Assembly: GCA_017468205.1 (NCBI GenBank)
Contig: JAFUJK010000013.1
Coordinates: forward strand, 2,020-66,019
Length of the DNA: 64,000 bases
Origin: Clostridia bacterium
GTDB taxonomy: Bacteria; Bacillota; Clostridia; Christensenellales; UBA1242
Reading direction: 5' to 3'
Below, in pieces: positions 2 through 15,399 of this stretch (its first letter is position 1; every line of letters starts with the position of its first letter). A program made the translations under genes and the position numbers. Below the pieces are notes generated by a model. The model searched no databases and was not told the DNA's origin. It was given only the letters and a program-made list of their open reading frames with translations.

Positions 2-1438
2 GCTCTTGCCGATTTGGTTGAGGTTCAAGCCAACAACTCAAACGCAACAATGAACTTCCCAGTTCCTGTAATGTTAAATGGTTCAAGTGTAAATGATATT
101 TACAAACAAATGAAATTTACTGGTGGATTCGATGGTGCTGGATATTCAATCACAAACTTCCAGACCGCTGGGGCACAAAGCTTTGGTTGGTGGAATAGTA
201 TTGAATCAGTCGTTCCTGTCAACCTTGATAGTGTGGGCGAAAACTTCTACTATCGTGGTGGTGTGATTAAGAACTTGACAATCGAGGCTTACTCAATCAA
301 TGTTTCTTCACTTATTTCAAATTCTTATAGCGGTCTATTCGCAAAAGAAAACTATGGTTGGATTGTGGATAGTAATGTAACAGGTGCAGAAAAGAGTGAT
401 GCGGACGGGTTTAAACTCGAAGTTGTAACAGGCGCAATCAATCAAGCAGATGTCTACATTGGTGGTTTGGTTGGTCTTGTTGGTCAACGTTCAGAAACAC
501 TAAATGGTGTTACAACTTACTATGGCGATGGTAGAATTGAAGGTTGTAACAATATGCTTAATATCAAGGTATATTCAGCAGAAAACAAGAACTTACGTTC
601 AATTGTCGGTGGTATCGCTGGATACAACTATCTAGGTATTATCATTGATTGTAGCAATGGTCAGACATCAATGCCAAACTTTAACAGCGCCCAAATCAGT
701 GGATTTGATGCCGGTGGAATCGTTGGACGCGTTAGTGGTATCGAAATTACAGCAGAAAGTGGCGAAAAGTCATATCGCTACGCTCGTATTTCAGGTTGTG
801 TCAACTATGGTACTATCACAAGCGTATCTCTCGTAAGTGAGAGTGTTGAAAGTTGTGTTAGCGGTGGTATTGCTGCAAACGTTCAAATCGGTTTTGTTAC
901 ATATTGTATTAACTATGGTCTTGTAACATCAAGCGGTTACTATCCAATTATGGGTGGTGTAGTAGGTTATACATTCGGCGGTGGCTTCGTATTAAGTTGT
1001 GTTAATATGGGTATCGTTCGTGGAAATATCTACTACGAAAGCAATGGCGTTGTAAACATTGAATATAGAACAGAGCCTACAATGGGTTCGTTGATTGGTA
1101 GTGCTTACAACGATAGTAGATTGTGTTATAGTTATCACGTTGCAAACAAGGTTGAAATTGTTGATAACAGCGTTTCTGGGGATAACACTGTTTGCACTTC
1201 TCCTGCATTTGGATATAGTGCAATCGAGCCAGACGGCGTTGAAACAGTAAACGACTTTGCGCTTCTTGATGGTGACGATGTGGCTACATTCTTGGCATCA
1301 GTTAACAAGAGCACAATCGTAATTAACAGTGAATCAGTTACATATATCTATCCAAGCACTTCTGGACTAGTTGCTCAATTTGCAATGCTAGTTGGCGGTT
1401 CACCAAGTCTTGAATGGGTTGTACCTGAAACTGAATAA
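2..1438 (+). CDS. GLUG-motif repeat protein, 5' end lies outside the window (secreted/surface protein candidate)
   Basis: The frame is open from the window edge, with no stop between nt 2 and the TTG at 14. A spaced pattern GG[IVL][AV]G...G.I..C.N.G.[IV] recurs, e.g. IGGLVGLVG..GRIEGCNNM, VGGIAGYNYLGIIIDCSNG, AGGIVGRVSG..ARISGCVNYG, SGGIAANVQIGFVTYCINYG, MGGVVGYTFGGGFVLSCVNMG. This matches the GLUG motif family as I remember it. Confidence 0.6.
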   Translation, partial: ALADLVEVQANNSNATMNFPVPVMLNGSSVNDIYKQMKFTGGFDGAGYSITNFQTAGAQSFGWWNSIESVVPVNLDSVGENFYYRGGVIKNLTIEAYSINVSSLISNSYSGLFAKENYGWIVDSNVTGAEKSDADGFKLEVVTGAINQADVYIGGLVGLVGQRSETLNGVTTYYGDGRIEGCNNMLNIKVYSAENKNLRSIVGGIAGYNYLGIIIDCSNGQTSMPNFNSAQISGFDAGGIVGRVSGIEITAESGEKSYRYARISGCVNYGTITSVSLVSESVESCVSGGIAANVQIGFVTYCINYGLVTSSGYYPIMGGVVGYTFGGGFVLSCVNMGIVRGNIYYESNGVVNIEYRTEPTMGSLIGSAYNDSRLCYSYHVANKVEIVDNSVSGDNTVCTSPAFGYSAIEPDGVETVNDFALLDGDDVATFLASVNKSTIVINSESVTYIYPSTSGLVAQFAMLVGGSPSLEWVVPETE

Positions 1439-1526
1439 AATTTGACTTCTTTGTTGTTGCCTTTGGAATATGCCCGAACTTTTTACATTTACTTGTAGAT
1501 AAATTATGAACGGGGGAGTTATCCTT

Positions 1527-4500
1527 ATGTCAAATTCAGTAAAAATTACAATAGCGATTGTTGTGGCAGTACTTGTGATAGCGAGTATTGTAGGTTTAAT
1601 ATTTGTTCTAACACCCGCATCAAAGCCGAACAACTCGCTTACTCAAAGGTTAGCAACCCCAGAAAACGTGAGGATTAATGAAGAAAACTGGGTGTTGAGT
1701 TTTGATAGCGTGGAAAATGCGCAAGGCTATCGCATTTATATCAATGACGCGGACACCTTTGTCTCGACCTCAACTAGCGTATCAGTTCAAAGTTATATTA
1801 CAAGATACGCAAAATATTCGTTTGAAGTTAGTGCTATTCACTCAACTCCTGACTATAACTCGGCTCGTAGTGCTCCTGTTTATGGATACAATACGACCAC
1901 ACTTTCGACACCTCTAAACCTTACGTGGGAAGGCGAGGAATTGTCGTGGCTTGCAGTTGAAAATGCATCAAGTTATTCTGTTATGCTTACTTATAAGCCA
2001 GATGGCTCTAATAATGAAATGACTACAAACATTTTAACCCACGGCAACACTTTTGACTTTGGTGCATTGCTTACACAAGCGCCATATTCGCAAATAAACT
2101 TCTTTGAACTCGCTGTAAAGGCAAGTTCAACTGATGCCTATGGCAACGAAAATGACTATATTTATGATAGCGCTTACAGCGACCCTGCGATTTATTTTAG
2201 AACTACATCAATTGATGCACCAACGATTAGAATAAGTCCAGACGTGAGAGGGCAAACTAGCCAGCAAGGCACAGAAAGAGTGCTTTCTTGGGACGTTGAT
2301 TTTGCAGTTGATAAATATCTAGTTTACGTAAATGGACAACTTCGCAAAACTGTTGCTAATGACGAACTTGAAGGCTTGTCATCATATAGTTTGAACCTTA
2401 ACGAAATTATGGTTGATGGTGTTTGCATTACGGATACTTTGGGCGCAAAAACAATCTTTGTAACCGCAGTTCCCAAAACTAACGACTATTATCATATTGA
2501 AAATCGTTCGAGCGACTTAATTGAATATACTGTGGTTCACACTCTTTCTGCTCCTGATGCTCAATCAATTAAAATGAGTAAGGAAGGGGAAAACCTTGTT
2601 ATTACTTGGGATACAGTTGAAGATACATATGGCGTGAATACTCGTTATACTCCAACTTCGTATAACCTCGTGTTGCTTGCAAATAGTGATATAGAAAATC
2701 CAACCTTTGTAGCGCGCGCCCCTGTAACCGAATTGCTTTTGCCTTATTACAGTATTCCACTGTCCGAACTCAGTGCCTTGGGTGTTTCATTTAAAGCAAT
2801 GATTTCTGCTGTTGAAAGTAAATCGGAATATATTTTGGATAGTGCGTATAGTGAAGAATCCGAGGCTTATGAGGCAATAACCCAACTTGAAACTCCTGAC
2901 GGCTTTGCACTTAACGAAAGCAACGGTGTTGATACATTGTCGTGGCGTGCTGTTGACAATGCAGGAAGTTATACCGTTATGGTTTATATGGGTACAATAG
3001 ATGCCGAAACTAATAACATTAATGCGATTGGTTCTGCCTTGGTAACTCAGGTTGTAACCGAAACAAAAATAACAATTTCAAATTATATGAAAGCGCACTT
3101 GCCAAACCCTCTTGGTCCAGGACTATATGCAATTCGCGTGATTGCAAATGGTGCGTCAAAATTCTACACATCATCAAATGCTAGTGAACCAGTAAAATAT
3201 GATTATAAGGTTCGTTTGACCGCTCCTGTAATTCATTCTGTGTCAAAGGTTGCTCAACTTGACAATAAGGGCGAAATTACATTCGTTTTTGATTATGTCG
3301 AGGGCGCAGAAAGATACCACATCAATGTTAACGGAATTTTGGCATTCTTGATTGACCAGCCAGCACTAGATAGTGAAATGATTTCTAGTGTTGAAGTTAA
3401 TGGCACTACATCTTATAGAATAGTTGATAAAACGCGCTTAACTGATTTTATAAATAATAACTATTCTTCACCAAAAGTGCATTCAATCACGGTTCAAGCG
3501 ATTATTCTTGACACTGAAAATGCAAATGGTTATATCAGCAGTCTTTTGTCAACAGAATATAAGTTTAGTGATTATTATACGCATCAAAAGCCAACAAATC
3601 TTGTTGCTTCTCAACAAGCAGGGCAGAATGGTGTAGTTCTAACTTGGGATAGCGTGCCAACTGTTGTTGCTGCTAACGGAACTTACGAAATCTTTGTAAT
3701 TGACGAAAACAACGGGCGCGTTGCTGTAAACACTAACGCTATCACAGGAAGCCGTGTAGCAGATTTGAGTCCTTACTTGCAACTTGGTATGAACACGATT
3801 GAAATGCGTTCTGCTCGTTCTGGTTTGTATCTTGCTAGTGATTACGTAACAACTACAATAAATTATGTTTATAACTTATCGGGAACTCTCAACACTACAA
3901 TCACTCCAATAAGTGGCTCCAAGAATAATAGACTTTTTATTGAGGCATCTAAAAATGTAGATTTCCGCTATATAACTGATTATTATGTAGAGTTTATCAA
4001 CAGCGCAGGAACTGTATTTAACAGCCTAAATATTCATACTGATGTTGCTGGTAGTGATATTGACGAAGTTATAACTGACGAATACTTACCTCTATACAAG
4101 ACGACGACAGTAAAAATTTACGCAGGTAAGACTAAATCTGGTGATAACATAATTAGTCAGAGCGTACATCTTAATTCTGATGGCTGTGAGTGGAGTTTGG
4201 ACTATGAAAGCAGTTCGTTTATGGACAGCCCTACAATCTCGCATAGCGAAACAGTAGTTGATTCTAAACCAAAGGTTTACGCAACGATTAATGTTTCAAA
4301 GGATTCACTTCCTTTTACAAAGAGCATTGAATGGACATTTGAAGGTACAACTGGTATAACTTATACAAGTTACATTGATATTACTGACACCACAACAAAT
4401 AGTTTTACAATTGATTTGACAGCATTGCAACTTGTAAATGATGATGAAAATGCCCTTTTAGGTGGTGGATACAATATCACTGCAACCGCTATTTCAAACA

Positions 4501-7500
4501 AATCTAGCGAATTGCGTTCAAGTCCAGCACAATATGCATTTGATATTATCATCGACCTTCAAGCACCTGCGGGCTTTGTTATGGCTGACGACCATTCATA
4601 TTTGCAATGGAATTATATTGCTTTTGTTGACCACTATGAGATAACGATGAACGGCGCAACAAAGTCTACAACTGTTAGTGAGTATACTGATTATGTTGAT
4701 GGCAAATATGTGCGTGTAATGCGTGCAAATACTACTGGCTGGTTCAGTGGGCTAAGCAAAGGCGCAAGTGTGGTATTTGGTGTTAAAGCGGTTGCACAAG
4801 CCAATGGATACTATCGTGATAGTAGTGCAGTTTACACTTGGGAATTTAACAATAGAATTTCCGCGCCACTTGTAGAAGTTGTTACTAAAAACAATCAACT
4901 CCACCTCCAAATTCTTTACAGCAAATTAGTTTCTAATTATTCAATTAGTTGTGAAGAATCAAGCGCAGGAGTTAGTGTAAATGCGACCGCTAATATTGTT
5001 GAAAACGGTTACGTTTACTTCAACCTTGAAAATGTGCTTGCGGATAAAGTGGCAGGTGAATATGGATTTAGTGTTGTTGCTAATCCACTTGATGCTTCAA
5101 CTTATAACACAAGCGACCCAACAGTTGTTAATGTTGAATGGCAAAAGCGTTTTGCTCAACCAAACATTACCGTAGCGCAGAATTTTGATAACAACACACT
5201 TTCATTTACTTGGAGTGATGTTAGTGTAGATGTGCTTGCAAATGGACAATTGACAAGAGTTGCGCCAAGTGGCTATCTTGTTACAATTACACAAGCATCA
5301 AGAACGGATAGTGTATATTCTCAAACATTGACAACAAATACACTTACATTAACCTCAACAGAACTTGCTTCTATGACAAGTGGTTACTACTTCGTAAGTG
5401 TTACAGCACTTGAAAATGCTCCGATGTTAGAAAGTTATGAAAGTGCATATCGCTTTGCTTATCAACAACAACTTCAAACTCCAATCATAGCCTTTGTTGC
5501 AGGTGATAGCCTAGCAAACGAGAATACTCTTGACGTACAGCAAACAAGCACACCTGATGCAAATGCTCCAAAATTTGACCTTAAAGTTATCAATTCAGCA
5601 AATGAAGAGAAGATTTTTGAGGGGATTGCTTGGAGTGGAAACGTAGCAACACTTCAAGGTGGTACGCACTTTGCCGAGCGCGGTTCTTATACCATTGCTA
5701 TTCGCAATGCACAGAACGGAAGTTTGGCTGCGAGTGCGTGGAGTAATTCTCTTGTAATTCGTTACGGCACTTCGTTTGATGTGGCTGAAAACATTACAAT
5801 GACTTATGACGACCCAACAACAACATATACTGTGAACTTTGACAAATTAGAATTGCCAAGTGAATTGACGGGTGAGGTAACATATACTGCAAGCGTAACT
5901 TACAACAATATTAAGCAAGCCATCACAAGCGACCAAATTACACTTGTTGCGGATAGTACATATTCATTTAGTTTCCAAAACGCGCAATGGGGTGATGCGT
6001 GGGCGGAAGGTTCGAGATTTACAATTGTGATTACAGCAAACACTACAGACGAACTTTACACTACGAGTAGCACAACCTATGTATTTGCTATCGGTGATAT
6101 GGTTGCACCATACGACATTGTGTTTACTGCTGATGGTGCAGATGCAACAATTACTTGGAAAGGTGATACACAATATGTCGGTGTTGTATATACCTATTCA
6201 ATCTATGTTGTTGACGCAAACGGCTCAAATTTATATCTTGCAAACGATGGTTCTTGGACAGCAGATAATGCTAATCAAGCAACATTGACAACGACAACAA
6301 CCGAAATTGCCTTTACTCTGCCAAGCGCACAAGTTTATGCAATTTACTTTACAATAATAGCAAGTGTTACAAACGGAGTTGACTCTGTTGCAAGTGCACC
6401 TCATACACACATCTTTATGAACACGCAAACACTTGCTGGGGTAAATGACTTTGCAGTTAATTATGATAAGACAACACAAACTTACACTGCAATTTGGACA
6501 AATAATCTTCAAAATTCAACCGCTTTCAATGGTGGCGCTTACACTCTTAAAATAAATGGAACTACTGTTCTCAATTCAAGTGTGGAAAGTGGCTCAATAG
6601 TTAGTGTTGACATTACGTCATTTGTTCCAACATTCCTTGCAAGCGGACGAATTGCATACTGGGAGATTACTGCAAGTGATGTTGTTTATACTGTTGGTGA
6701 ATCAAACTACATTGCTTATAAGGGTGGTGTATATGCTAACAGCCTTGAACTCCCAATCGTTATTAGCGATGCCCCAAACACTTTAGTTCTTGACGGGACT
6801 GTTGCAAAATGGAGTTATGTGGTGAATGCTACAAAATATAAACTCTACATCGCAGACAGCACAGGCATGCCACTCAACTTTGAGAACGGCTCTGCTCGCG
6901 AGATTGTAACAAATCAAAACACCTATGACTTCTCTGGACTTCTTGCTGGTTTGGAAGCAGGGGACTATCTCGTGGTTGTTCAAGTTGAGGAGGACGAGGC
7001 AAACGGCGTTTATGTAAGCGAAGATTTGGAAAAAACAACAGCAACATATCTACAAACTGCTCCATTAAACGCAATTACTGATTTGACATTTGAACAAAAT
7101 TACGTTGGTGGACAGGTTAGAACATATGCTAGATGGAATTACAACACAAACGGCGACTTTACGATTGAAAATATGAAGTTTAGCATTACAATTACCGATA
7201 AAAATGGTAAATCAGTTGCATACGACAATCTCAACCCAGCATTAAGTGGTACAAAGTTTACTTATTCTAACAGCGCAGGCGACACAACAAAAGGCTCATT
7301 CGTGTTTAGTTATATTGACCGCTCTGCTGACGATTTGACTGTTGACCTTGCAGGTGGCGAATGTGTGTTCACGGTCGTTGTAAGCGGTGTTGACGGAAGT
7401 GCATATTTCACTGCTTCAAACGGTGTGAGTGGCAACTTCAACAATATTTTTGGACTACAAGCAATCACTAACGACAACCTCTTTGCTGTTGCACCTGAAT

Positions 7501-10500
7501 GTTTCATTAAGGGTGTTGCGTACAACGAAATTGCAGGCTATGAGGAAGGTTTGAGAGATGACTTCGAAGAGTATGAAAGTACAATCGGCTTCAACGAAAA
7601 ATATCTCATAATAACAGATGACACGCTTTCATTTGCTCAATACTTCAAAGTGTATATCTCAACAACAACCGATGGTAACGGCGCAAATATTTACGAATAT
7701 GTCGGCGATATTAAGAATGAAGCAACAGAAATTAGTTTTGATGCAATTTCTAACACAACCGCAAAATTGCGCCTTCCAACAGCAATCGCTGGAATTAATA
7801 AGATTAAACTTATTCCATATGGCGAAGAAGAATACTACAAATATATTGATGGAGGCACTGTTTATGACTTGTCTTCTGATGTGGCTATCGAGAAAATTTC
7901 AAGCGAGTTCGATGTTGAGTTGTTTATGAGAAATGAGGCTCCAAACCTCAATATTCACTCTATAAAATTGGGCTATTCTGACAGCCAAGACAAGAAGAAT
8001 ATTAATTCTGTAAATCTTACATTTAGCAACCTTAAAATAGGCGGAATTTATCGAGTTACACCATACTACTATGACTATTACAACAATGGCGCGCTTGTTG
8101 AATGCGAGCCAACGGACATTGGACCTCTAACCGCAGACGACTTTAACGGAAGTGTCCCAAAAGGTCTTGACATCTACGACTTGATTAGTTTCTACGGTCC
8201 TCATCAATTCTACTTTACTGTGCAGTCTATCGTGCCACAAGGCGAGGGCTCAAACTACTGGCTCAACAGCCACATTTCAACAACTCCTAATAGTTTTGAA
8301 TTTGTTACAAAATTGATGGAATTTGCGCCAATACTTGATGGTGATAGTTCAGTCAACAGCCTTGTAAACCCAATTACAGTTAAAAATGCAGGTGGCACGC
8401 TTGAAAATGGCGACTTGTATTGGACTTTGCCAACACACCCATATAGTGTTCGTATAATCTACACTGTTACTTTGTGTGATGAAAACCAAACTTTGGGTAG
8501 CATTATGCAGTTTGGCGAGAAACATATCATTAAATATAGCGTAGTGCTTGATGTGATTGTTACAAAGGACAGCATTACATATCAAATTGGTGAGCAAAGT
8601 ATGCTCAAACAAAATGTAACGTCAACAATAACCGACGGATTTGTGCTTGACACGGATAATGGTATTTTAGTATTTGATATGACAAAATATTTTGAGGATA
8701 GCACTCGTGTTGCCGACAATCAAAATGGTGCTTGGTACTTGGCGGGAAGTTATACTTATATGATTACTGCTGATGTGTTTGCTATAAGTGAGCCATATAA
8801 TTGCACTAGGATTTCTAGTCCAGCATCATTTGGAACAGAAAGCGCAATGAATAAGTACAATTATACAAACATTCCATTCCCATATCAGCCTACAAACGTT
8901 CGCCTGAGCGAGAACGGCGACTTAACTTGGGACTATGCGGACAAAATCTACGACTCTGCATATCTTGATACTGCAATATTTGAAATTTGGGTGTATAACT
9001 GGGACGATGCTCACGAGAACTATACTATATCAAAACTCGATGACTATGTCTACGGTACAGTTGTAACTAACATTAGCCACTTGTTGACCGCTGGTGGTGC
9101 AAAGAGAAATGAGGTTGTTATCCGTACAGTTAGCCCTGATATTAACATCTATGAGCCTAGTGAATGGGTGAGTGTAAACGCAGGTGCATTACCTACAACA
9201 ACTGCCCTTCCAAACATTAGTGTAGTTTGGGGTAATGACGAAACACTCAAAAATAACGACCACCGCGTAGTTGCAATTACTCTTGACAATTACGTAAGTA
9301 ACGCAATTCTTGCAGACGTTGAAGCAAACAATTTTGATGTGCATATTAACGTTCACTTGCTCAAAGTTATTGATTGGGCACAGGGTAGCCCAGAACCAAC
9401 TTATGCTAACTATGATGAGGCAAGAGAAAGTGGCGACTATCCAACAATCAGTTGGAACCAGCCACTCACCGAACAATATTATAATTATATTACCTATAAG
9501 AACCACGAAGGTCTTGACTACAAATTTAATTTTGTAAACGCTATCAATGCACTTGTTAGTGCTGGATTAGAAAGCGAAACTTTGTGGCTTATTGGTGGCG
9601 ACTCTCTCGCTGGTGGGTACTACTATCTTAAAGTAGAACTCACAACAGGTCTTACTTGCTACTCTCCAAGCGTGGTTTATCAGTCAAAACTTGTTCGCGA
9701 AGTTTGGCGCAGTAGTCAAGAACAGGCAACTATAACTGGTCAACACCTTACTACAAAAACATTAGGTGTTGCAGCCGAGCCTGTGAACGGAAATGATAGA
9801 GAATGGGGAGCCGATGCTCACAAAGAAGCATTGCTTACAATCCCAGTTGACACGATTGACTACCGCATCGACGAGAATACGATTGCACCAAAACTTCCTT
9901 CTGAAATTACCGTTTACGCACGACTCTACACAGGAGTTGGCTATGATGCAGACCACAGTTATTCAATCACTTACTCAATACCTGATGTAAGTTTGATTAC
10001 TGGCGGAAAATATCAAAATGGCGACATAACTTTGTCAATGATTACTGATAATGATTATAGCCGTATTAATGTTACAATCGATATTCACGCTTTATTTGAT
10101 AAGAATATTTACGCGGGAGTATATGACATCTTCTGGGTGCTTAACGGCGACCAAGTCGGCGACAGCAGTCCAGTAGAAGCGCCATATCAGTTGCGTGAAG
10201 AAATTTGCCACTATGTAGTTTTCCCAACACCAATACTTGACTATCGTTTGGGCTACACTGGCACAAATAGCGACCAGTACGTAATTAACTGGGTTCTTAC
10301 TCCAAATAAATATACTCACGAAGTTAACGACACAATTGATTATAACATCAATTTGTATGCGTTCGTTGCTGATGAAAATGGTAACTTTGCAACTGATGAC
10401 GCGGAGGCAAATGACCCTAACTTCTTGAAAGCATCAAGTCAAGAAAAATATTTTGTTGGGAATGCAAATGCAAGCGGAACAACTTTAGAAAATTACAGCA

Positions 10501-13500
10501 ATATTCAAGTGCTTAATGGCAGAGATTGTTATATTCAACAAAATACAATCGCAGGATTTAGTTTGACACCAAACAAGACTTACAAAGTTTATATGTATCT
10601 TTCAACCTCTCGTTGGGGTGAAACTGATGATATGAATGCGTTCTATTACTTGAATAGTGATACTTCTGTTGGTGTTGAATACGTGTACAAGAAGATTTCA
10701 GGTCAGCACGTTGCTGATGATGTAGAGTCTCCAACAGCGGATTATCCATTAGAAAGATTTACCGCCAGTGATAGAGAAGTTGTTGAAAATGGTGCTTATT
10801 ACACATTTACATCAACTCAACCAGATTACAACAACAATGCACTTGAATTATTCGTGTACAACACGCAAGACCCTCGTGCTGGGTACGATGAACATTGGAC
10901 TGATGCACAAGAGAATGACGGCACATATCTTGCTCACTTCATTATCGGTACAAAGGATAATGCAAGTGCAAAGAACGGAAGACAAGACTTGTATATCTTG
11001 TATGACTACGAGGATAAAGTTGTCAACTCTGGAACTTGGGACTATTCGCGCTCGGTTGGATTTATGTCGGGCAAAAATATCACAATCAACAAACTCACTA
11101 TTAGCGAATTGCTTTATAATAAGGTAACCCAAGTTGCTGGACTCGACCTCAATAAAATGTGGACACCAATCACATATTATTGCAAAATCCAATCTTGGAT
11201 AAACAATAACGAAGTAAACAAGAATATGCCAACATATCTTGGTACGGACAACGTTGTAAGATACAAGGATAAGGATACAGTATTTGGCAGAGAATGGATT
11301 AAGAAACACATAGATTTCGTTCGCAATGAGGACGGAAGCATCAATTCAGAAGCGGTAGAGAAGTTGTATAACGATTTGCTTGAAGACAACAAGGTGTTCG
11401 ATGTTCCATACTTGAATGCAAACGCGTTAAATCTTGAATACTATTTCACATTCCAGCACACAATCCAATATGCAATGCCATATTTGTCTAGTGAAAATGG
11501 AATTGAAATTGTAAACAAGGACGGCACAAGTGATTATGTTGATTACTCAACAATCGACCTTGGCAATGGCGTGTTGCAATATAAGACTGATGGATATGTT
11601 AAGGCTACTTCAAACTTTAACTATTACTATCGCATTTGGCTTAACGACTTATATACAACTGACCCACTCATTAGAAGTGATAAGGAAATTAATGTAACCG
11701 TAAGTGCTACATTCTATGACGATACTACGGGTGGCTCGGGTAACTATGGCGACTATAACAATAGCCAATGGGGAACTTTTGATTCTGTAAACTTGTTTAT
11801 TCATTATGTTGATGAAGACAATGAGGATTTGAGCGCTGAATTTATCGCCGCGCACAAAGGACAAGCTTACATTGAATTAAAGTTTGATAGCCCAGAAAGT
11901 GGGGCGAGCGCGTTATATACCGCTATGGACCAATGGCTTCCTAACATCTTTACGTTTGAGTTTAGAGCGGTAACTAGTGGCAGTCCTGTGATTAACACGG
12001 GTGAAACAAATACTACAAATGCGTTTGTAACTTACAATAATGTAACTGGTGAAGTTAATTCTACAAAGAACGTGATTTCACGTATATATGCAGAGTCTAA
12101 CTCATCAGAACACCCAAATTATTTGACCGTTCGCAAGCAATACACCGCTCCAACAGTTGATTTAAGATTTGACTCAATGCAGACATCGCTTTCTGAATTT
12201 GGTGAAATGCAATCAATAAAGTTAGGTGAAACTTATTACACGACAAACCTTGTTGAAGAACTTACAAATTCAGACTATGTAGGACTTGCAAGTAACCCTT
12301 ATCTATTCTCAACAGCGGAGGCTTTGGATAGAACGGGCGGTCAAGCCTTTGAGTATGGTATGCTGAAAACTGATAAGCGTACACATTATGAAATCAAGTT
12401 GTACTACAAGGATGATAACGGAAATATTCTGAATACTTCAAATGTGATTAGTTTGCTTACAAATGACGTAAACAACACGCTCACACGCTTTACACAAGCC
12501 GTAAAAGGGCTTGATGTGGATTCAGCACGTTTTGACTATTCAAAATATAAAGATATCTATCCATACGAAGAAACTTGCTTGTACGAAGCAATGTATAGCC
12601 TTATCAATGGCGACCTCAAAACTGGCGCATATAAGGGCGGAAGAATTGATATTGACATTCGCGTTGTAACACCAAGCGAGGATAGAACGGACAAAAACAA
12701 TCAAAATTGGGTTACAAGTGCGTGGGCAAGTGCTGAACGAGCAGAATTATATACGTTCTATTTCCACCCTCGACTTGAAACCGTTGTAACTTCATTCAAT
12801 CAAAATGAATGTAACTTTACAACAGATTATGAGGGCGGTACATCTTCGTTCTATGTGCAAGACGGAAAGTATTATTACCACCAATCTTACGTTCCTTTGC
12901 ACTACACATCAATTAGTCGTACTGCACAATACTATGTATATCTGTCTCGTACACAGGGCGGAAGTGGTTATATTAATATGCCTTATAACATAAATAACTC
13001 TGTTGTAAGAGATTATTGTACACTTTCACCTCGTAACACTGATACAAAGAATACAAAGAACCTCGTTGATATCCTAAAACACGACCTAGTAGATGCTAAA
13101 ACTTATGATTCAAGTTCTTCTTCTGCCCACGCTAACCAATGGAGATTGCCAGAAAACGTAAATGATACGTGGCTTATCAACATTGTTGCAGCAGTTGGCG
13201 ATGATATGACTTATGTTGGTCGCGGATTTAATAGTAAAGACCAAAACTATACTGTTAAACTCAAAATCAAGATGGACATTCAATCACTTTCAATTGATAT
13301 GGAACCACTTGTAAACAAGTCAACAAATGTGCTTAATGAAAATTCATTCACTGCAACAACATTGAAAAATGGCTATGCAGGTAGTGCTTTGTGGAAAAAT
13401 TACAGCACTTCACAAGATTTAACTGGACAGGCTTTCAACAGGGCGGCTAACAAGGCGGTATTTAAATACTACTATCCTTATGGCAACACTATGAAAGCAA

Positions 13501-15233
13501 CAGGTACTTATACAATCGGCGATACTGACAATAGATACTACAAACTCTTCTATGACTTTATCAAAGGTTCACTTATGAGCGACCTCAACATTCGTGCTTC
13601 TGACGGATTTAGGGTTAACGTAATGTTCAAGTTTAATGATGGCACTTATGCAAGCGAGAATGTTGTCGATAGTGCATACTCCGTTGACTTGTATCTAAAT
13701 TACTATCGTAACTTGCCGTTTGATACAAGTAAAATTGTGTTCACACAAGATAGTAGCGGAATTAAAATGAACGCAAACTATTCAGTACACAACCAGTTTG
13801 CTGCATTGAATGTAACTATTGACCAATATGACTATTCAAATGGAAATAATTATACTTCAACCGCTATATACACTTCTAATAGTACAAGCGGAAGTACCAA
13901 GAACTATGTGGCTAAGGCAAGTTTTGATTACGATTATGCTGATTGTTTCAGTACAAAATCAATCCCAGCCGATGTTATTAGAAAAATGATAAATAACGGA
14001 TACACGCAGTACACGGGTTATGCACAAGGTGGTATGAACTACTTTACAATTACCCCTGTTCATGACGGATATGCAAAAGACCACAATTTGCTTGCGTATG
14101 GAACAAAGTATAATGACGATGTCGACTATACTGTTCGCATTAACCCAACTGTTTCAATATCTTACGACGAGGGTATGCATAATGACGAAAACACTGTAAT
14201 TTCTGACTCGTGGATTTGGGACCACTCATCAACAACTAATTCATATATTGAAAAAGAGTTGATTATGGATGAGTATTGGGGATATATTGAAAATATTACT
14301 GCTGATTATAGTTATATGAATGGCGCAACGGTAGAAGTTTATTATGCTTATGGCTTAACTATTGAAAATCCTGCTCACGTTGTTGATATCGTATCGGGTA
14401 CATCAACAAAAGCAATGACTTCATTTGGCTCGGGACAATATAATGATGTTGAAATTGAAATTCGAGTTTATTGTAAAGAAGGATTTGAAAGTGTGTTCGC
14501 GCGTTCAAGTGACAGCGATAGCATAGATATAAAACCGGGTAGCGATGTGCAAGAATATGTTCCTGTAAGAAAAGATTACTCTGAAAAGACAAATATATTA
14601 AGTTATGTTGAGCTTGAAGTTACTGACGGCTGGATGGGTGGCGGTAGTGTCGCTGATTATGTTGGAAGTATATTTAAAGGTGGTAATCGTGATGCTAGAT
14701 GTACTGTTTCATACGATACTAGTGAGTTACCAAGTGGATTTAGTTTCAATATTGATGTAAGCGCTAGATATAGAGTATCTTATTCTGAAAATGTAGCAGA
14801 AGAGGGAGAAGAAGAAAATATTAAAACTATTTATAGAACTGGTAATTTGAGCGGTAATACTACAATTTCAACAGGCGGTTCTGGTTCATTTAGACTTACA
14901 GGTCATTATTGGGAAACGGATGCTTACAAATGTCTTGCTTCGTTTAGCGATTTTGAAGGTGGAAGTGCCTCTATGAGTAATAGCACTTTTGAACGTGGTG
15001 CAGGTGCAACCGCAGGTGCAACAACTCCTTGTGTAACTTGTGGTGGTGACGGAAAAGTGGAAAGTGCTCACAAAGGTTCAAAAGTAATAACCATAACAGA
15101 TACCTATTACAAATGTTCTTGTGGTGAAACTATTGATGGTACTATTTGGGACGGCGATACAAAAACATGGGGTACTGGTTGTCCAAAACATTTGGCAGAT
15201 TGCTCTTCTTGTAATGGAACGGGATATATATAA
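1527..15233 (+). CDS. Giant (~4,570 aa) N-terminally membrane-anchored protein with FN3-like repeats and a C-terminal Cys-rich zinc-finger-like tail
   Basis: Single uninterrupted ORF 1506..15233. The ATG at 1527 is preferred because GGGGGAG lies 8 nt upstream. There is a hydrophobic anchor, ITIAIVVAVLVIASIVGLIFVL. Many ~90-100 aa modules have the pattern [LI]xxP...W...Y.[VI], e.g. LSTPLNLTWEGEELSWLAVENASSYSVMLTY. The last ~70 aa hold 7 Cys, including two CxxCxGxG motifs. Confidence 0.85.
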   Translation: MSNSVKITIAIVVAVLVIASIVGLIFVLTPASKPNNSLTQRLATPENVRINEENWVLSFDSVENAQGYRIYINDADTFVSTSTSVSVQSYITRYAKYSFEVSAIHSTPDYNSARSAPVYGYNTTTLSTPLNLTWEGEELSWLAVENASSYSVMLTYKPDGSNNEMTTNILTHGNTFDFGALLTQAPYSQINFFELAVKASSTDAYGNENDYIYDSAYSDPAIYFRTTSIDAPTIRISPDVRGQTSQQGTERVLSWDVDFAVDKYLVYVNGQLRKTVANDELEGLSSYSLNLNEIMVDGVCITDTLGAKTIFVTAVPKTNDYYHIENRSSDLIEYTVVHTLSAPDAQSIKMSKEGENLVITWDTVEDTYGVNTRYTPTSYNLVLLANSDIENPTFVARAPVTELLLPYYSIPLSELSALGVSFKAMISAVESKSEYILDSAYSEESEAYEAITQLETPDGFALNESNGVDTLSWRAVDNAGSYTVMVYMGTIDAETNNINAIGSALVTQVVTETKITISNYMKAHLPNPLGPGLYAIRVIANGASKFYTSSNASEPVKYDYKVRLTAPVIHSVSKVAQLDNKGEITFVFDYVEGAERYHINVNGILAFLIDQPALDSEMISSVEVNGTTSYRIVDKTRLTDFINNNYSSPKVHSITVQAIILDTENANGYISSLLSTEYKFSDYYTHQKPTNLVASQQAGQNGVVLTWDSVPTVVAANGTYEIFVIDENNGRVAVNTNAITGSRVADLSPYLQLGMNTIEMRSARSGLYLASDYVTTTINYVYNLSGTLNTTITPISGSKNNRLFIEASKNVDFRYITDYYVEFINSAGTVFNSLNIHTDVAGSDIDEVITDEYLPLYKTTTVKIYAGKTKSGDNIISQSVHLNSDGCEWSLDYESSSFMDSPTISHSETVVDSKPKVYATINVSKDSLPFTKSIEWTFEGTTGITYTSYIDITDTTTNSFTIDLTALQLVNDDENALLGGGYNITATAISNKSSELRSSPAQYAFDIIIDLQAPAGFVMADDHSYLQWNYIAFVDHYEITMNGATKSTTVSEYTDYVDGKYVRVMRANTTGWFSGLSKGASVVFGVKAVAQANGYYRDSSAVYTWEFNNRISAPLVEVVTKNNQLHLQILYSKLVSNYSISCEESSAGVSVNATANIVENGYVYFNLENVLADKVAGEYGFSVVANPLDASTYNTSDPTVVNVEWQKRFAQPNITVAQNFDNNTLSFTWSDVSVDVLANGQLTRVAPSGYLVTITQASRTDSVYSQTLTTNTLTLTSTELASMTSGYYFVSVTALENAPMLESYESAYRFAYQQQLQTPIIAFVAGDSLANENTLDVQQTSTPDANAPKFDLKVINSANEEKIFEGIAWSGNVATLQGGTHFAERGSYTIAIRNAQNGSLAASAWSNSLVIRYGTSFDVAENITMTYDDPTTTYTVNFDKLELPSELTGEVTYTASVTYNNIKQAITSDQITLVADSTYSFSFQNAQWGDAWAEGSRFTIVITANTTDELYTTSSTTYVFAIGDMVAPYDIVFTADGADATITWKGDTQYVGVVYTYSIYVVDANGSNLYLANDGSWTADNANQATLTTTTTEIAFTLPSAQVYAIYFTIIASVTNGVDSVASAPHTHIFMNTQTLAGVNDFAVNYDKTTQTYTAIWTNNLQNSTAFNGGAYTLKINGTTVLNSSVESGSIVSVDITSFVPTFLASGRIAYWEITASDVVYTVGESNYIAYKGGVYANSLELPIVISDAPNTLVLDGTVAKWSYVVNATKYKLYIADSTGMPLNFENGSAREIVTNQNTYDFSGLLAGLEAGDYLVVVQVEEDEANGVYVSEDLEKTTATYLQTAPLNAITDLTFEQNYVGGQVRTYARWNYNTNGDFTIENMKFSITITDKNGKSVAYDNLNPALSGTKFTYSNSAGDTTKGSFVFSYIDRSADDLTVDLAGGECVFTVVVSGVDGSAYFTASNGVSGNFNNIFGLQAITNDNLFAVAPECFIKGVAYNEIAGYEEGLRDDFEEYESTIGFNEKYLIITDDTLSFAQYFKVYISTTTDGNGANIYEYVGDIKNEATEISFDAISNTTAKLRLPTAIAGINKIKLIPYGEEEYYKYIDGGTVYDLSSDVAIEKISSEFDVELFMRNEAPNLNIHSIKLGYSDSQDKKNINSVNLTFSNLKIGGIYRVTPYYYDYYNNGALVECEPTDIGPLTADDFNGSVPKGLDIYDLISFYGPHQFYFTVQSIVPQGEGSNYWLNSHISTTPNSFEFVTKLMEFAPILDGDSSVNSLVNPITVKNAGGTLENGDLYWTLPTHPYSVRIIYTVTLCDENQTLGSIMQFGEKHIIKYSVVLDVIVTKDSITYQIGEQSMLKQNVTSTITDGFVLDTDNGILVFDMTKYFEDSTRVADNQNGAWYLAGSYTYMITADVFAISEPYNCTRISSPASFGTESAMNKYNYTNIPFPYQPTNVRLSENGDLTWDYADKIYDSAYLDTAIFEIWVYNWDDAHENYTISKLDDYVYGTVVTNISHLLTAGGAKRNEVVIRTVSPDINIYEPSEWVSVNAGALPTTTALPNISVVWGNDETLKNNDHRVVAITLDNYVSNAILADVEANNFDVHINVHLLKVIDWAQGSPEPTYANYDEARESGDYPTISWNQPLTEQYYNYITYKNHEGLDYKFNFVNAINALVSAGLESETLWLIGGDSLAGGYYYLKVELTTGLTCYSPSVVYQSKLVREVWRSSQEQATITGQHLTTKTLGVAAEPVNGNDREWGADAHKEALLTIPVDTIDYRIDENTIAPKLPSEITVYARLYTGVGYDADHSYSITYSIPDVSLITGGKYQNGDITLSMITDNDYSRINVTIDIHALFDKNIYAGVYDIFWVLNGDQVGDSSPVEAPYQLREEICHYVVFPTPILDYRLGYTGTNSDQYVINWVLTPNKYTHEVNDTIDYNINLYAFVADENGNFATDDAEANDPNFLKASSQEKYFVGNANASGTTLENYSNIQVLNGRDCYIQQNTIAGFSLTPNKTYKVYMYLSTSRWGETDDMNAFYYLNSDTSVGVEYVYKKISGQHVADDVESPTADYPLERFTASDREVVENGAYYTFTSTQPDYNNNALELFVYNTQDPRAGYDEHWTDAQENDGTYLAHFIIGTKDNASAKNGRQDLYILYDYEDKVVNSGTWDYSRSVGFMSGKNITINKLTISELLYNKVTQVAGLDLNKMWTPITYYCKIQSWINNNEVNKNMPTYLGTDNVVRYKDKDTVFGREWIKKHIDFVRNEDGSINSEAVEKLYNDLLEDNKVFDVPYLNANALNLEYYFTFQHTIQYAMPYLSSENGIEIVNKDGTSDYVDYSTIDLGNGVLQYKTDGYVKATSNFNYYYRIWLNDLYTTDPLIRSDKEINVTVSATFYDDTTGGSGNYGDYNNSQWGTFDSVNLFIHYVDEDNEDLSAEFIAAHKGQAYIELKFDSPESGASALYTAMDQWLPNIFTFEFRAVTSGSPVINTGETNTTNAFVTYNNVTGEVNSTKNVISRIYAESNSSEHPNYLTVRKQYTAPTVDLRFDSMQTSLSEFGEMQSIKLGETYYTTNLVEELTNSDYVGLASNPYLFSTAEALDRTGGQAFEYGMLKTDKRTHYEIKLYYKDDNGNILNTSNVISLLTNDVNNTLTRFTQAVKGLDVDSARFDYSKYKDIYPYEETCLYEAMYSLINGDLKTGAYKGGRIDIDIRVVTPSEDRTDKNNQNWVTSAWASAERAELYTFYFHPRLETVVTSFNQNECNFTTDYEGGTSSFYVQDGKYYYHQSYVPLHYTSISRTAQYYVYLSRTQGGSGYINMPYNINNSVVRDYCTLSPRNTDTKNTKNLVDILKHDLVDAKTYDSSSSSAHANQWRLPENVNDTWLINIVAAVGDDMTYVGRGFNSKDQNYTVKLKIKMDIQSLSIDMEPLVNKSTNVLNENSFTATTLKNGYAGSALWKNYSTSQDLTGQAFNRAANKAVFKYYYPYGNTMKATGTYTIGDTDNRYYKLFYDFIKGSLMSDLNIRASDGFRVNVMFKFNDGTYASENVVDSAYSVDLYLNYYRNLPFDTSKIVFTQDSSGIKMNANYSVHNQFAALNVTIDQYDYSNGNNYTSTAIYTSNSTSGSTKNYVAKASFDYDYADCFSTKSIPADVIRKMINNGYTQYTGYAQGGMNYFTITPVHDGYAKDHNLLAYGTKYNDDVDYTVRINPTVSISYDEGMHNDENTVISDSWIWDHSSTTNSYIEKELIMDEYWGYIENITADYSYMNGATVEVYYAYGLTIENPAHVVDIVSGTSTKAMTSFGSGQYNDVEIEIRVYCKEGFESVFARSSDSDSIDIKPGSDVQEYVPVRKDYSEKTNILSYVELEVTDGWMGGGSVADYVGSIFKGGNRDARCTVSYDTSELPSGFSFNIDVSARYRVSYSENVAEEGEEENIKTIYRTGNLSGNTTISTGGSGSFRLTGHYWETDAYKCLASFSDFEGGSASMSNSTFERGAGATAGATTPCVTCGGDGKVESAHKGSKVITITDTYYKCSCGETIDGTIWDGDTKTWGTGCPKHLADCSSCNGTGYI

Positions 15234-15365
15234 TTTCTTAAAACCACCAAGAAATTATGTTGTAGATAATCATACCATTGAGAACAATACACAAATCACA
15301 AAGATTTTAAGGCAAAACTATTGAAAGTAATGCTAGTCAAATTGCCAAGAAAGTAATGCAAAAAC

Positions 15366-15399
15366 AAAAAAGACGGAAAAATCCGTCTTTTTTGTGTAT
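15366..15399 (+). terminator. Rho-independent terminator, copy 1 of a reused terminator cassette
   Basis: AAAAAGACGG-aaaaat-CCGTCTTTTTTGTGTAT. The GACGG/CCGTC stem is extended by A/T runs and lies downstream of the giant gene. Confidence 0.7.

Follow-up and report, generated by a model that had tools for sequence, protein, structure and literature searches.

A conserved giant protein with a predicted membrane anchor and an FN3 stalk in small-genome Clostridia

The stretch of DNA analyzed here, referred to as the window, comprises 64,000 nucleotides (nt) of contig JAFUJK010000013.1 from a Clostridia bacterium (GenBank assembly GCA_017468205.1), and all positions are counted from its first letter. 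It contains a gene of 13.7 kb for a giant protein of 4,568 amino acids (aa), with a mass of 507 kDa and an isoelectric point of 4.45. In the six-frame list of open reading frames (ORFs), the open frame covers positions 1506 to 15233 of the forward strand (4,575 codons), and its translation is free of stops. With the base composition of the window, the chance of an equally long open frame is about 1e-151. The ATG at position 1527 was assigned as the start codon, as it is preceded by a Shine-Dalgarno sequence and as the aligned relatives all open with MSK or MSR. An initial annotation of the locus had described one uninterrupted gene running from this ATG to the stop at 15233, and both the frame and the start were confirmed. 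The protein is acidic and contains little cysteine (0.6%) and much T, S, N, Y, and D; its gene accounts for 1.1% of the genome. Homopolymer tracts of at least seven G/C or at least nine A/T were not found between positions 1301 and 15700, and phase variation of the gene was therefore rejected. The features of the locus are compiled in Table 1.

Table 1. Features of the giant gene and its immediate surroundings, in window coordinates; residue numbers refer to the giant protein.
Feature	Position	Strand	Remarks
Upstream partner gene, 3' part	2..1438	+	lipoprotein of about 2,500 aa; gene cut by a contig break
Shine-Dalgarno sequence GGGGGAG	1512..1518	+	8 nt 5' of ATG 1527; read from the sequence
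Giant gene	1527..15233	+	4,568 codons and a stop codon; identity of full-length relatives 23-69%
Signal-anchor transmembrane helix (predicted)	1545..1613	+	residues 7-29, after a six-residue N-terminal tail
Stalk of 18 tandem, mutually divergent FN3 modules	1650..7439	+	residues 42-1971; self-comparison, HMM
Divergent FN3/Ig-like beta-sandwich region with helical inserts	7452..9692	+	residues 1976-2722; AF2, Foldseek, module HMM
Non-repetitive conserved orphan region ("head")	9693..14186	+	residues 2723-4220; best conserved core about 2850-3420
Variable C-terminal region	14187..15029	+	residues 4221-4501; large indels in relatives
DnaJ-type zinc-knuckle tail (putative), CVTCGGDG...CSC...CPKH...CSSCNGTG	15030..15230	+	sequence
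Hairpin terminator	15364..15395		3' of the giant gene; strong hairpin

When a profile of an alignment of 14 sequences was compared with itself, residues 39-1851 aligned with residues 123-1981 at a shift of one module (E = 6.9e-38), and many further shifted alignments were obtained. The initial annotation had noticed more than a dozen repeat modules and had read them as FN3-like. In agreement with this reading, 18 modules could be delimited between residues 42 and 1971, and a profile of 67 modules of the family matched titin (8.6e-12), fibronectin (3.5e-10), and tenascin-R (1.4e-09) in PDB; chains of a single FN3 domain or a monobody were matched with E values between 4.5e-05 and 1e-03. The modules have lengths of 83-125 aa, with a mean of about 107, and are about 15-25% identical to one another; each of them is conserved at its orthologous position. 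With the Pfam model fn3 (PF00041), the best score in the window protein was 14.1 bits versus a cut-off of 25 (E = 0.054, residues 54-106), and one relative reached E = 1.2e-05. The profile matches in PDB support the assignment of the stalk modules to the FN3 superfamily.

The FN3-like array appears to run on weakly to about residue 2720. A hidden Markov model (HMM) of the modules gave weak matches at residues 2019-2118, 2152-2261, 2454-2551 (in 11 of 14 members), and 2641-2722. The AlphaFold2 (AF2) model of the tile comprising residues 1976-3150 had a mean predicted local distance difference test score (pLDDT) of 74.8, and most values up to tile residue 920 lay between 70 and 93. The model consisted chiefly of beta-strands with short helices, and the groups of strands coincided with the matches of the module HMM. 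Foldseek searches of PDB with this tile retrieved FN3, Ig, and MG chains; the best match was the leptin receptor ectodomain (2.7e-11), and others were complement C5, CD109, gp130, contactin FN1-3, and fibronectin.

A hydrophobicity scan of the whole protein with a 19-residue window yielded one segment above the threshold, for which the windows start at residues 1-16. This segment is the single N-terminal hydrophobic anchor that had already been noted. Its uncharged core comprises residues 7-29 and is 22-25 residues long across 14 family members. The charges on its two sides had been described as nearly balanced and the topology, as a consequence, as uncertain. The first statement is correct for the window protein, with +1 on the six-residue N-flank and +2 on the C-flank. 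The doubt about topology is largely removed by the family: in 13 of the 14 members, the charge of the six-residue N-flank is +2 or +3, and that of the 15-residue C-flank ranges from -3 to +2 in the family. According to the positive-inside rule, these flank charges favor an N-in/C-out topology. Arrays of FN3, Big_2, and Ig-like domains in bacteria are extracytoplasmic. A conserved AxA-like cleavage site was not seen, and signal peptides that are cleaved do not usually have a hydrophobic stretch of such length; therefore, the segment was interpreted as a signal-anchor.

Other means of surface attachment were not detected. The window protein contains no LPXTG motif, Pfam searches with its tiles gave no match to SLH, and no sortase (PF04203) was found in the genome, in which the positive controls were detected. 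These results agree with the earlier view that wall-anchoring signals are missing, and the reading of the protein as a sortase substrate was rejected. What could be predicted for surface attachment is thus the N-terminal anchor of 22-25 aa with its positive N-flank.

The region distal to the sandwiches, the head, is the best conserved part of the protein. Relatives that are about 40% identical overall share 42-56% identity here, and long invariant motifs include IDIHxLFD, CHYVVLPTPILDYRLDYTG, QPDNYNNAFELYVYNTQDPRAGT, GTYLAHxIIGT, TPITYYCKIKTWINNN, and YYFTFQH. The invariant residues of the core (about 2850-3420) include H2854, D2858, C2894, H2895, D2905, R2907, C3001, E3076, E3107, H3137, and H3311. 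Residues 2750-4250 contain 8-11% Y, 9-10% N, and 8-10% D. It had been stated that the distal half is not recognizably repetitive and could not be placed in any family, and our searches led to the same conclusion. In the profile self-comparison, no significant internal repeat was found past about residue 2600. Pfam matched the whole protein with 0 families at E <= 1, gave noise only for ten tiles of 457 aa, and found almost nothing in 15 relatives. NCBIfam and PHROGs searches with tiles yielded nothing significant. A sequence search of PDB with the giant protein gave no match, nor did a search at E <= 10 with a 13-sequence profile of residues 1976-4568. Finally, a profile of residues 2700-3850 was searched against 1.84 billion representative proteins, one for each 50% cluster of about 15 billion proteins. 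It retrieved 15 proteins, all of which belong to the family; 11 of them have lengths of 4,179-4,609 aa, and four are apparently fragments of family members.

Structure prediction for the distal part was successful in some regions, namely the FN3/Ig-like sandwiches up to about residue 2720 described above and residues of about 3910-4210, for which a beta-rich structure was predicted with good confidence. It was not successful for residues 2895-3420, for which a mixture of helices and strands was predicted with low confidence. Foldseek matches of the second distal tile were weaker and again comprised FN3 or MG chains (gp130 at 1.1e-07, mastigoneme, complement C3/C4), and the viral fold library BFVD returned only generic tail proteins bearing Ig/FN3 domains. 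Much of the distal half is therefore predicted to be rich in beta-sandwiches.

The protein could be a surface-displayed enzyme in which the FN3 stalk carries a new catalytic core at about residues 2850-3420, acting, for example, on glycans or walls of other cells. Invariant His, Asp, Glu, Cys, and Arg residues are found in this best conserved stretch, for which AF2 predicted, with low confidence, mixed helices and strands and not plain sandwiches, and a preprint connects, in its title, giant genes with the degradation of cell walls by bacterial predators (10.1101/2023.11.21.568195). However, an enzyme family was not matched in Pfam, NCBIfam, or PDB by either sequence or profile, and the top Foldseek matches of both tiles are non-enzymatic chains of the receptor or complement type. 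Moreover, most of the invariant residues are aromatic or are Gly, Pro, or Asn, which is typical of structural cores. Taking both sides together, we regard an enzymatic function as quite improbable.

Conservation ends abruptly behind the head. In the variable C-terminal region, identity drops to 14-32% with many gaps, and relatives contain an insertion of 164 alignment columns at about residue 4225-4250. The tail of the window protein contains two canonical CxxCxGxG motifs, a CxC, and a CxxH. The Pfam model DnaJ_CXXCXGXG (PF00684) reached E = 0.57 in the window protein (10.9 bits versus a cut-off of 32.7) and 2.8e-06 in two relatives. All eight candidate ligands of the tail are retained in the relative with 68% identity, and another relative (L018, 44%) has four canonical CxxCxGxG motifs at its C-terminus. 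In five more distant members, an insertion that lies about 100-300 residues ahead of the C-terminal end contains 4-6 motifs, and the remaining family members have none. Candidate zinc-knuckle modules are present in roughly half of the family (including L018, L021, L025, P0008, P0010, and P0017) and occur at two positions, either at the extreme C-terminus or in the insertion before the end. This distribution suggests modular gain and loss on a tip that is presumed to be extracellular. The only other CxxCxGxG cluster in the genome was found in an ORF of 377 aa with four motifs in the DnaJ pattern. In one relative (L022, G013:C64), masked bases, visible as X in the translation, lie near the 3' end of the giant gene and interrupt the C-terminal region, and the comparison of C-termini therefore covered the other members.

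A conserved body, a sharply variable stretch of the last 350 aa or so, and modular gain and loss at the C-terminus would also be expected for a polymorphic toxin or a contact-dependent delivery protein with a variable C-terminal effector. However, neither the window protein nor its relatives matched a toxin or pre-toxin family. In addition, no immunity-like ORF was found between the stop codon and the terminator or the MFS gene, either here or in the orthologues (gaps of about 300 nt), and the variable tails are G/S/T-rich, beta-like sequences or zinc knuckles and not enzymes. With neither a toxin match nor a downstream immunity ORF, this explanation was rejected as very improbable.

The giant protein had been called an orphan, which turned out to be incorrect: it belongs to a conserved family with near-fixed length and conserved synteny. 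In a word-indexed search of 5.8 billion proteins, five further clusters were found, namely full-length, collinear matches with 68%, 45%, 42%, and 39% identity (4,444-4,568 aa) and a fragment of 3,457 aa. In the genus of the source organism, the distal half was detected in 15 of 16 species, in open frames of 4,200-4,620 aa; it was not found in 20 other genera of the taxonomic family or in 24 other families of the order. With the stalk as query, a distant relative of 4,092 aa was found in a second genus (L026, G109:C3:43000-56500). It is 23% identical over residues 23-3753, is matched by the head profile at 2.8e-57 and 1.9e-41, and retains the layout of anchor, stalk, and head. The head query found no match in another species of this second genus (G034). 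In total, the protein family was found in 2 of the 58 genera sampled in the small-genome family. The occurrence in a second genus shows that the protein family is older than the genus, yet its distribution is very patchy. Overall, the relatives are collinear and have lengths of 4,090-4,620 aa.

The host genomes are metagenome-assembled genomes (MAGs) from the gut with sizes of 0.9-1.4 Mb, recorded as uncultured Clostridia bacterium or uncultured Christensenella sp., and their isolate names point to human-gut and animal sources. The lineage is a large family of uncultured Clostridia that live in gut and rumen, and the 119 other genomes sampled from this small-genome family all have sizes of 0.7-1.6 Mb. 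Several species (G015, G008, G004, and G011) contain two paralogues with 26-36% identity to the window protein; in G015, these are arranged in tandem on one contig (L020 and L021, G015:C4 26500-60000). In the source genome, a phmmer search of all ORFs with stalk and head revealed no paralogue. A scan of the JGI metagenome_contigs revealed no relatives. Unrelated giant frames were observed in other genera of the small-genome family, at G101:C2 ~92974 (5,362 aa), G030:C7 ~109693 (3,595 aa), and G114:C8 ~39051 (2,371 aa), and each of them matches within about residues 18-158 of the stalk query, the region of the first FN3 module. Giant FN3 surface proteins may be a habit of the whole small-genome family.

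Selection was quantified with three close orthologues. The ratio of nonsynonymous to synonymous substitution rates (dN/dS) was 0.09-0.11 for the whole gene, did not exceed 0.38 in any window of 400 codons, and was 0.03-0.07 at codons 2001-3200. The gene is under purifying selection over its whole length, and this includes the distal part. These results also bear on the possibility that the long frame results from mis-assembly or belongs to a decaying pseudogene and is open by chance. The MAG is fragmented (92 contigs), and a contig end cuts the upstream gene. However, the minute probability of such an open frame, intact collinear genes in independent assemblies from different studies, and the dN/dS of about 0.1 are incompatible with this view, and near-identical internal repeats that are prone to mis-assembly were not found. 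An artefact is therefore excluded for practical purposes.

The source MAG has a size of 1.23 Mb and a completeness of 94.6%. The window represents a chromosomal stretch with housekeeping genes, among them aspS, an ABC-F gene, a gene for a pyridine-nucleotide disulphide oxidoreductase (thioredoxin-reductase-like), and a phosphoglucosamine-mutase-like gene. The order giant lipoprotein gene, giant gene, MFS transporter, aspS, and ABC-F is conserved and was found at all loci that reach far enough upstream. In orthologues, the product of the upstream gene has 2,330-2,537 aa and starts with a lipoprotein signal (...L-x-x-C-G-E). It has one clear N-terminal Big_2 domain and weak fn3 matches, and the rest is dark to Pfam. 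The last ORF of contig C82 (30710-34918) corresponds to residues 1-1328 of the orthologue L016, and the first ORF of contig C89 (2-3454; window 2-1438) corresponds to residues 1338-2496. The two contig ends cover the orthologue with the exception of about 10 residues, which indicates that the contigs adjoin and that the lipoprotein gene is split by the assembly only.

The gap of 88 nt between the lipoprotein gene and the giant gene (1439-1526) contains no match to a promoter or a terminator, and a terminator follows the giant gene; therefore, co-transcription of the two genes is likely. In other species, this gap can be larger, with a range of about 90 to 390 nt, and at one locus an ORF of 133 aa was called in it (L003 7512-7913). 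The genome contains 17 ORFs of at least 1,200 aa, which make up 7.9% of its 1.23 Mb. Lipobox-like N-termini were found in several of these, and hydrophobic segments at the N- or C-terminus in some. With these features and with no sortase in the genome, membrane anchoring appears to be common among the giant proteins.

Taken together, we consider it probable that the giant protein is fibrillar, is displayed at the cell surface by a signal-anchor (N-in/C-out), and serves as an adhesin-like tether. Its layout of an anchor, a repeated stalk, and a distal non-repeat region fits the definition of a fibrillar adhesin. The acidic, cysteine-poor composition, the purifying selection, the conserved gene order, and the chains of sandwiches matched by both distal tiles also speak for this reading. 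The protein would be a type II fibre of 507 kDa, which a cytoplasmic tail of six residues and one transmembrane helix hold in the membrane. Its stalk would be built from the 18 unique FN3 modules and about six more divergent FN3/Ig-like sandwiches. An FN3 domain spans about 3.5 nm. With about 24 units, the stalk would reach roughly 80-90 nm. At this length, it could extend through a monoderm wall and keep the distal 1,850 residues on the outside. It would present the distal region, which is conserved, lineage-specific, and about 1,500 aa long. The variable tip would follow, which in the window species ends with the DnaJ-type zinc-knuckle module. The protein is probably made together with the upstream lipoprotein of about 2,500 aa. 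Most likely, it would tether a reduced-genome gut bacterium to a surface, which could be a partner cell, a host glycan, or a feed particle.

Several observations weigh against an adhesin-like tether. A recognized adhesive domain was not found in residues 1976-4568 with Pfam, NCBIfam, or PDB. The stalks of classical adhesins consist of near-identical repeats, vary in copy number, and evolve fast. Here, each module is unique, the number of modules and the length of the protein are held constant, and purifying selection is strong; a structural role would explain these features just as well. Usually, zinc knuckles are found in the cytosol. For both distal tiles, the TM-scores of the Foldseek matches were only 0.1-0.17, and the matches therefore identify the type of domain and not an overall fold or shape. 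The best conserved core had a pLDDT of about 40-60 in the AF2 models, in which the tile cut at residue 3150 splits it. The position of this cut is probably one reason for the low confidence at residues 2895-3420, and the core at about 2850-3420 might have a catalytic fold.

The structural role deserves separate consideration. The protein might be an element of the envelope or a molecular spacer, i.e. a fibre of fixed length, perhaps paired with the giant lipoprotein, that builds or spaces the outer layer and takes the place of an S-layer or of wall-bound proteins, as this lineage has no sortase. Lengths of 4,090-4,620 aa, modules that remain collinear down to 23-30% identity, the uniqueness and orthologous conservation of every module, and a dN/dS of about 0.1 throughout would all be expected of such a fibre. 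The same is true for the presence of the gene in 15 of 16 species of the genus, the missing sortase, and the co-conservation with the giant lipoprotein gene. However, the C-terminal 350 aa or so are highly variable, and zinc knuckles are swapped in and out, which resembles a ligand-facing tip. Furthermore, the gene was not found in 56 of the 58 genera sampled, and hence it does not serve a general need of the envelope. Because of the hypervariable tip and the patchy distribution, ligand recognition is favored over a spacer role, which we regard as possible but unlikely.

A more specific version of the tether can be formulated. The giant protein and the lipoprotein of 2,500 aa might together form a tether of fixed length, of the order of 100 nm, by which these gut Clostridia with genomes of 1 Mb would attach to a partner cell and live as epibionts or in dependence on a host. 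The head might contain one or more new folds that recognize the partner, and the exchangeable extracellular zinc-knuckle tip might tune specificity. In this detailed form, the proposal is speculative and rather unlikely to be correct.

Irrespective of these details, strong purifying selection has maintained a gene of 13.7 kb in a genome that is otherwise streamlined. This implies that the protein performs a function at the surface that is important for the cell and probably tied to its dependence on hosts or neighbors. The roughly 1,500 conserved residues that have no outside relative among 1.84 billion proteins and no confident fold are a target for structure determination. Tools that are based on Pfam domains would miss the protein entirely. 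Its design is unusual in that it combines an N-terminal membrane anchor, an invariant number of repeats, and presumed extracellular DnaJ-type zinc knuckles.

Single parts of the protein resemble well-known systems. Titin and fibronectin are likewise built from many FN3 modules in a row that differ from one another and are conserved in number; however, these arrays are eukaryotic and lack such a membrane anchor, and the likeness is at the level of the domain family only. The tail resembles the Cys-rich domain of DnaJ/Hsp40 (PF00684) and the zinc hairpins of the BSD2 type in having CxxCxGxG motifs in nested order at the C-terminus. In contrast to PF00684, which has four CxxCxGxG motifs and two zinc sites, the window protein has two canonical motifs. 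In addition, DnaJ is a cytosolic chaperone, whereas the module of the giant protein is located at a presumed extracellular tip, in some family members only, and at two alternative positions.

Fibrillar adhesins project a binding region off the cell, as described by Monzon and Bateman (10.1101/2020.12.07.414375 = PMC8286594; PMC9210967). The giant protein shares with them the format of a long multidomain protein, here with predicted surface attachment, and a stalk of tandem FN3 domains, a beta-sandwich type, that would hold out a non-repeat region. Of the features used to recognize this class, the tandem-repeat stalk is present (18 FN3 modules), and a recognized adhesive domain was not found. 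The usual Gram-positive fibrillar adhesin has an N-terminal adhesive domain and a C-terminal LPXTG motif. The giant protein inverts this polarity: its predicted anchor is an N-terminal helix, and its distal end is the C-terminus. It also differs in that its modules are all different, their number is fixed, and its evolution is purifying and not fast. Giant genes have also been described for Omnitrophota and other uncultured bacteria (10.1101/2023.11.21.568195). The common ground is very long genes in metagenome-derived genomes; the Omnitrophota proteins are much larger, and the giant protein has neither an enzyme or toxin signal nor a sequence relationship to them.

The closest described situation is the cluster Giant1-5 of Apilactobacillus kunkeei, with proteins of 3,000-8,000 aa that take up 6% of a 1.5 Mb genome (PMC12863079). 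Both cases have in common consecutive giant genes, a small genome (of which giant ORFs make up about 8% of 1.23 Mb here), elongated models, and restriction to a lineage. A sequence relationship between the giant protein and Giant1-5 was not found, and the designs differ. Giant1-5 lack transmembrane segments and presumably attach via C-terminal SH3b-like domains, whereas the giant protein has a predicted N-terminal anchor; furthermore, Giant1-5 have N-terminal beta-solenoid binding domains, and the rods of Giant1-3 consist of alpha-helical repeats. In summary, giant adhesin-like proteins are a familiar theme, to which the locus described here adds a conserved, lineage-restricted family of probable FN3 fibre proteins of 0.5 MDa.

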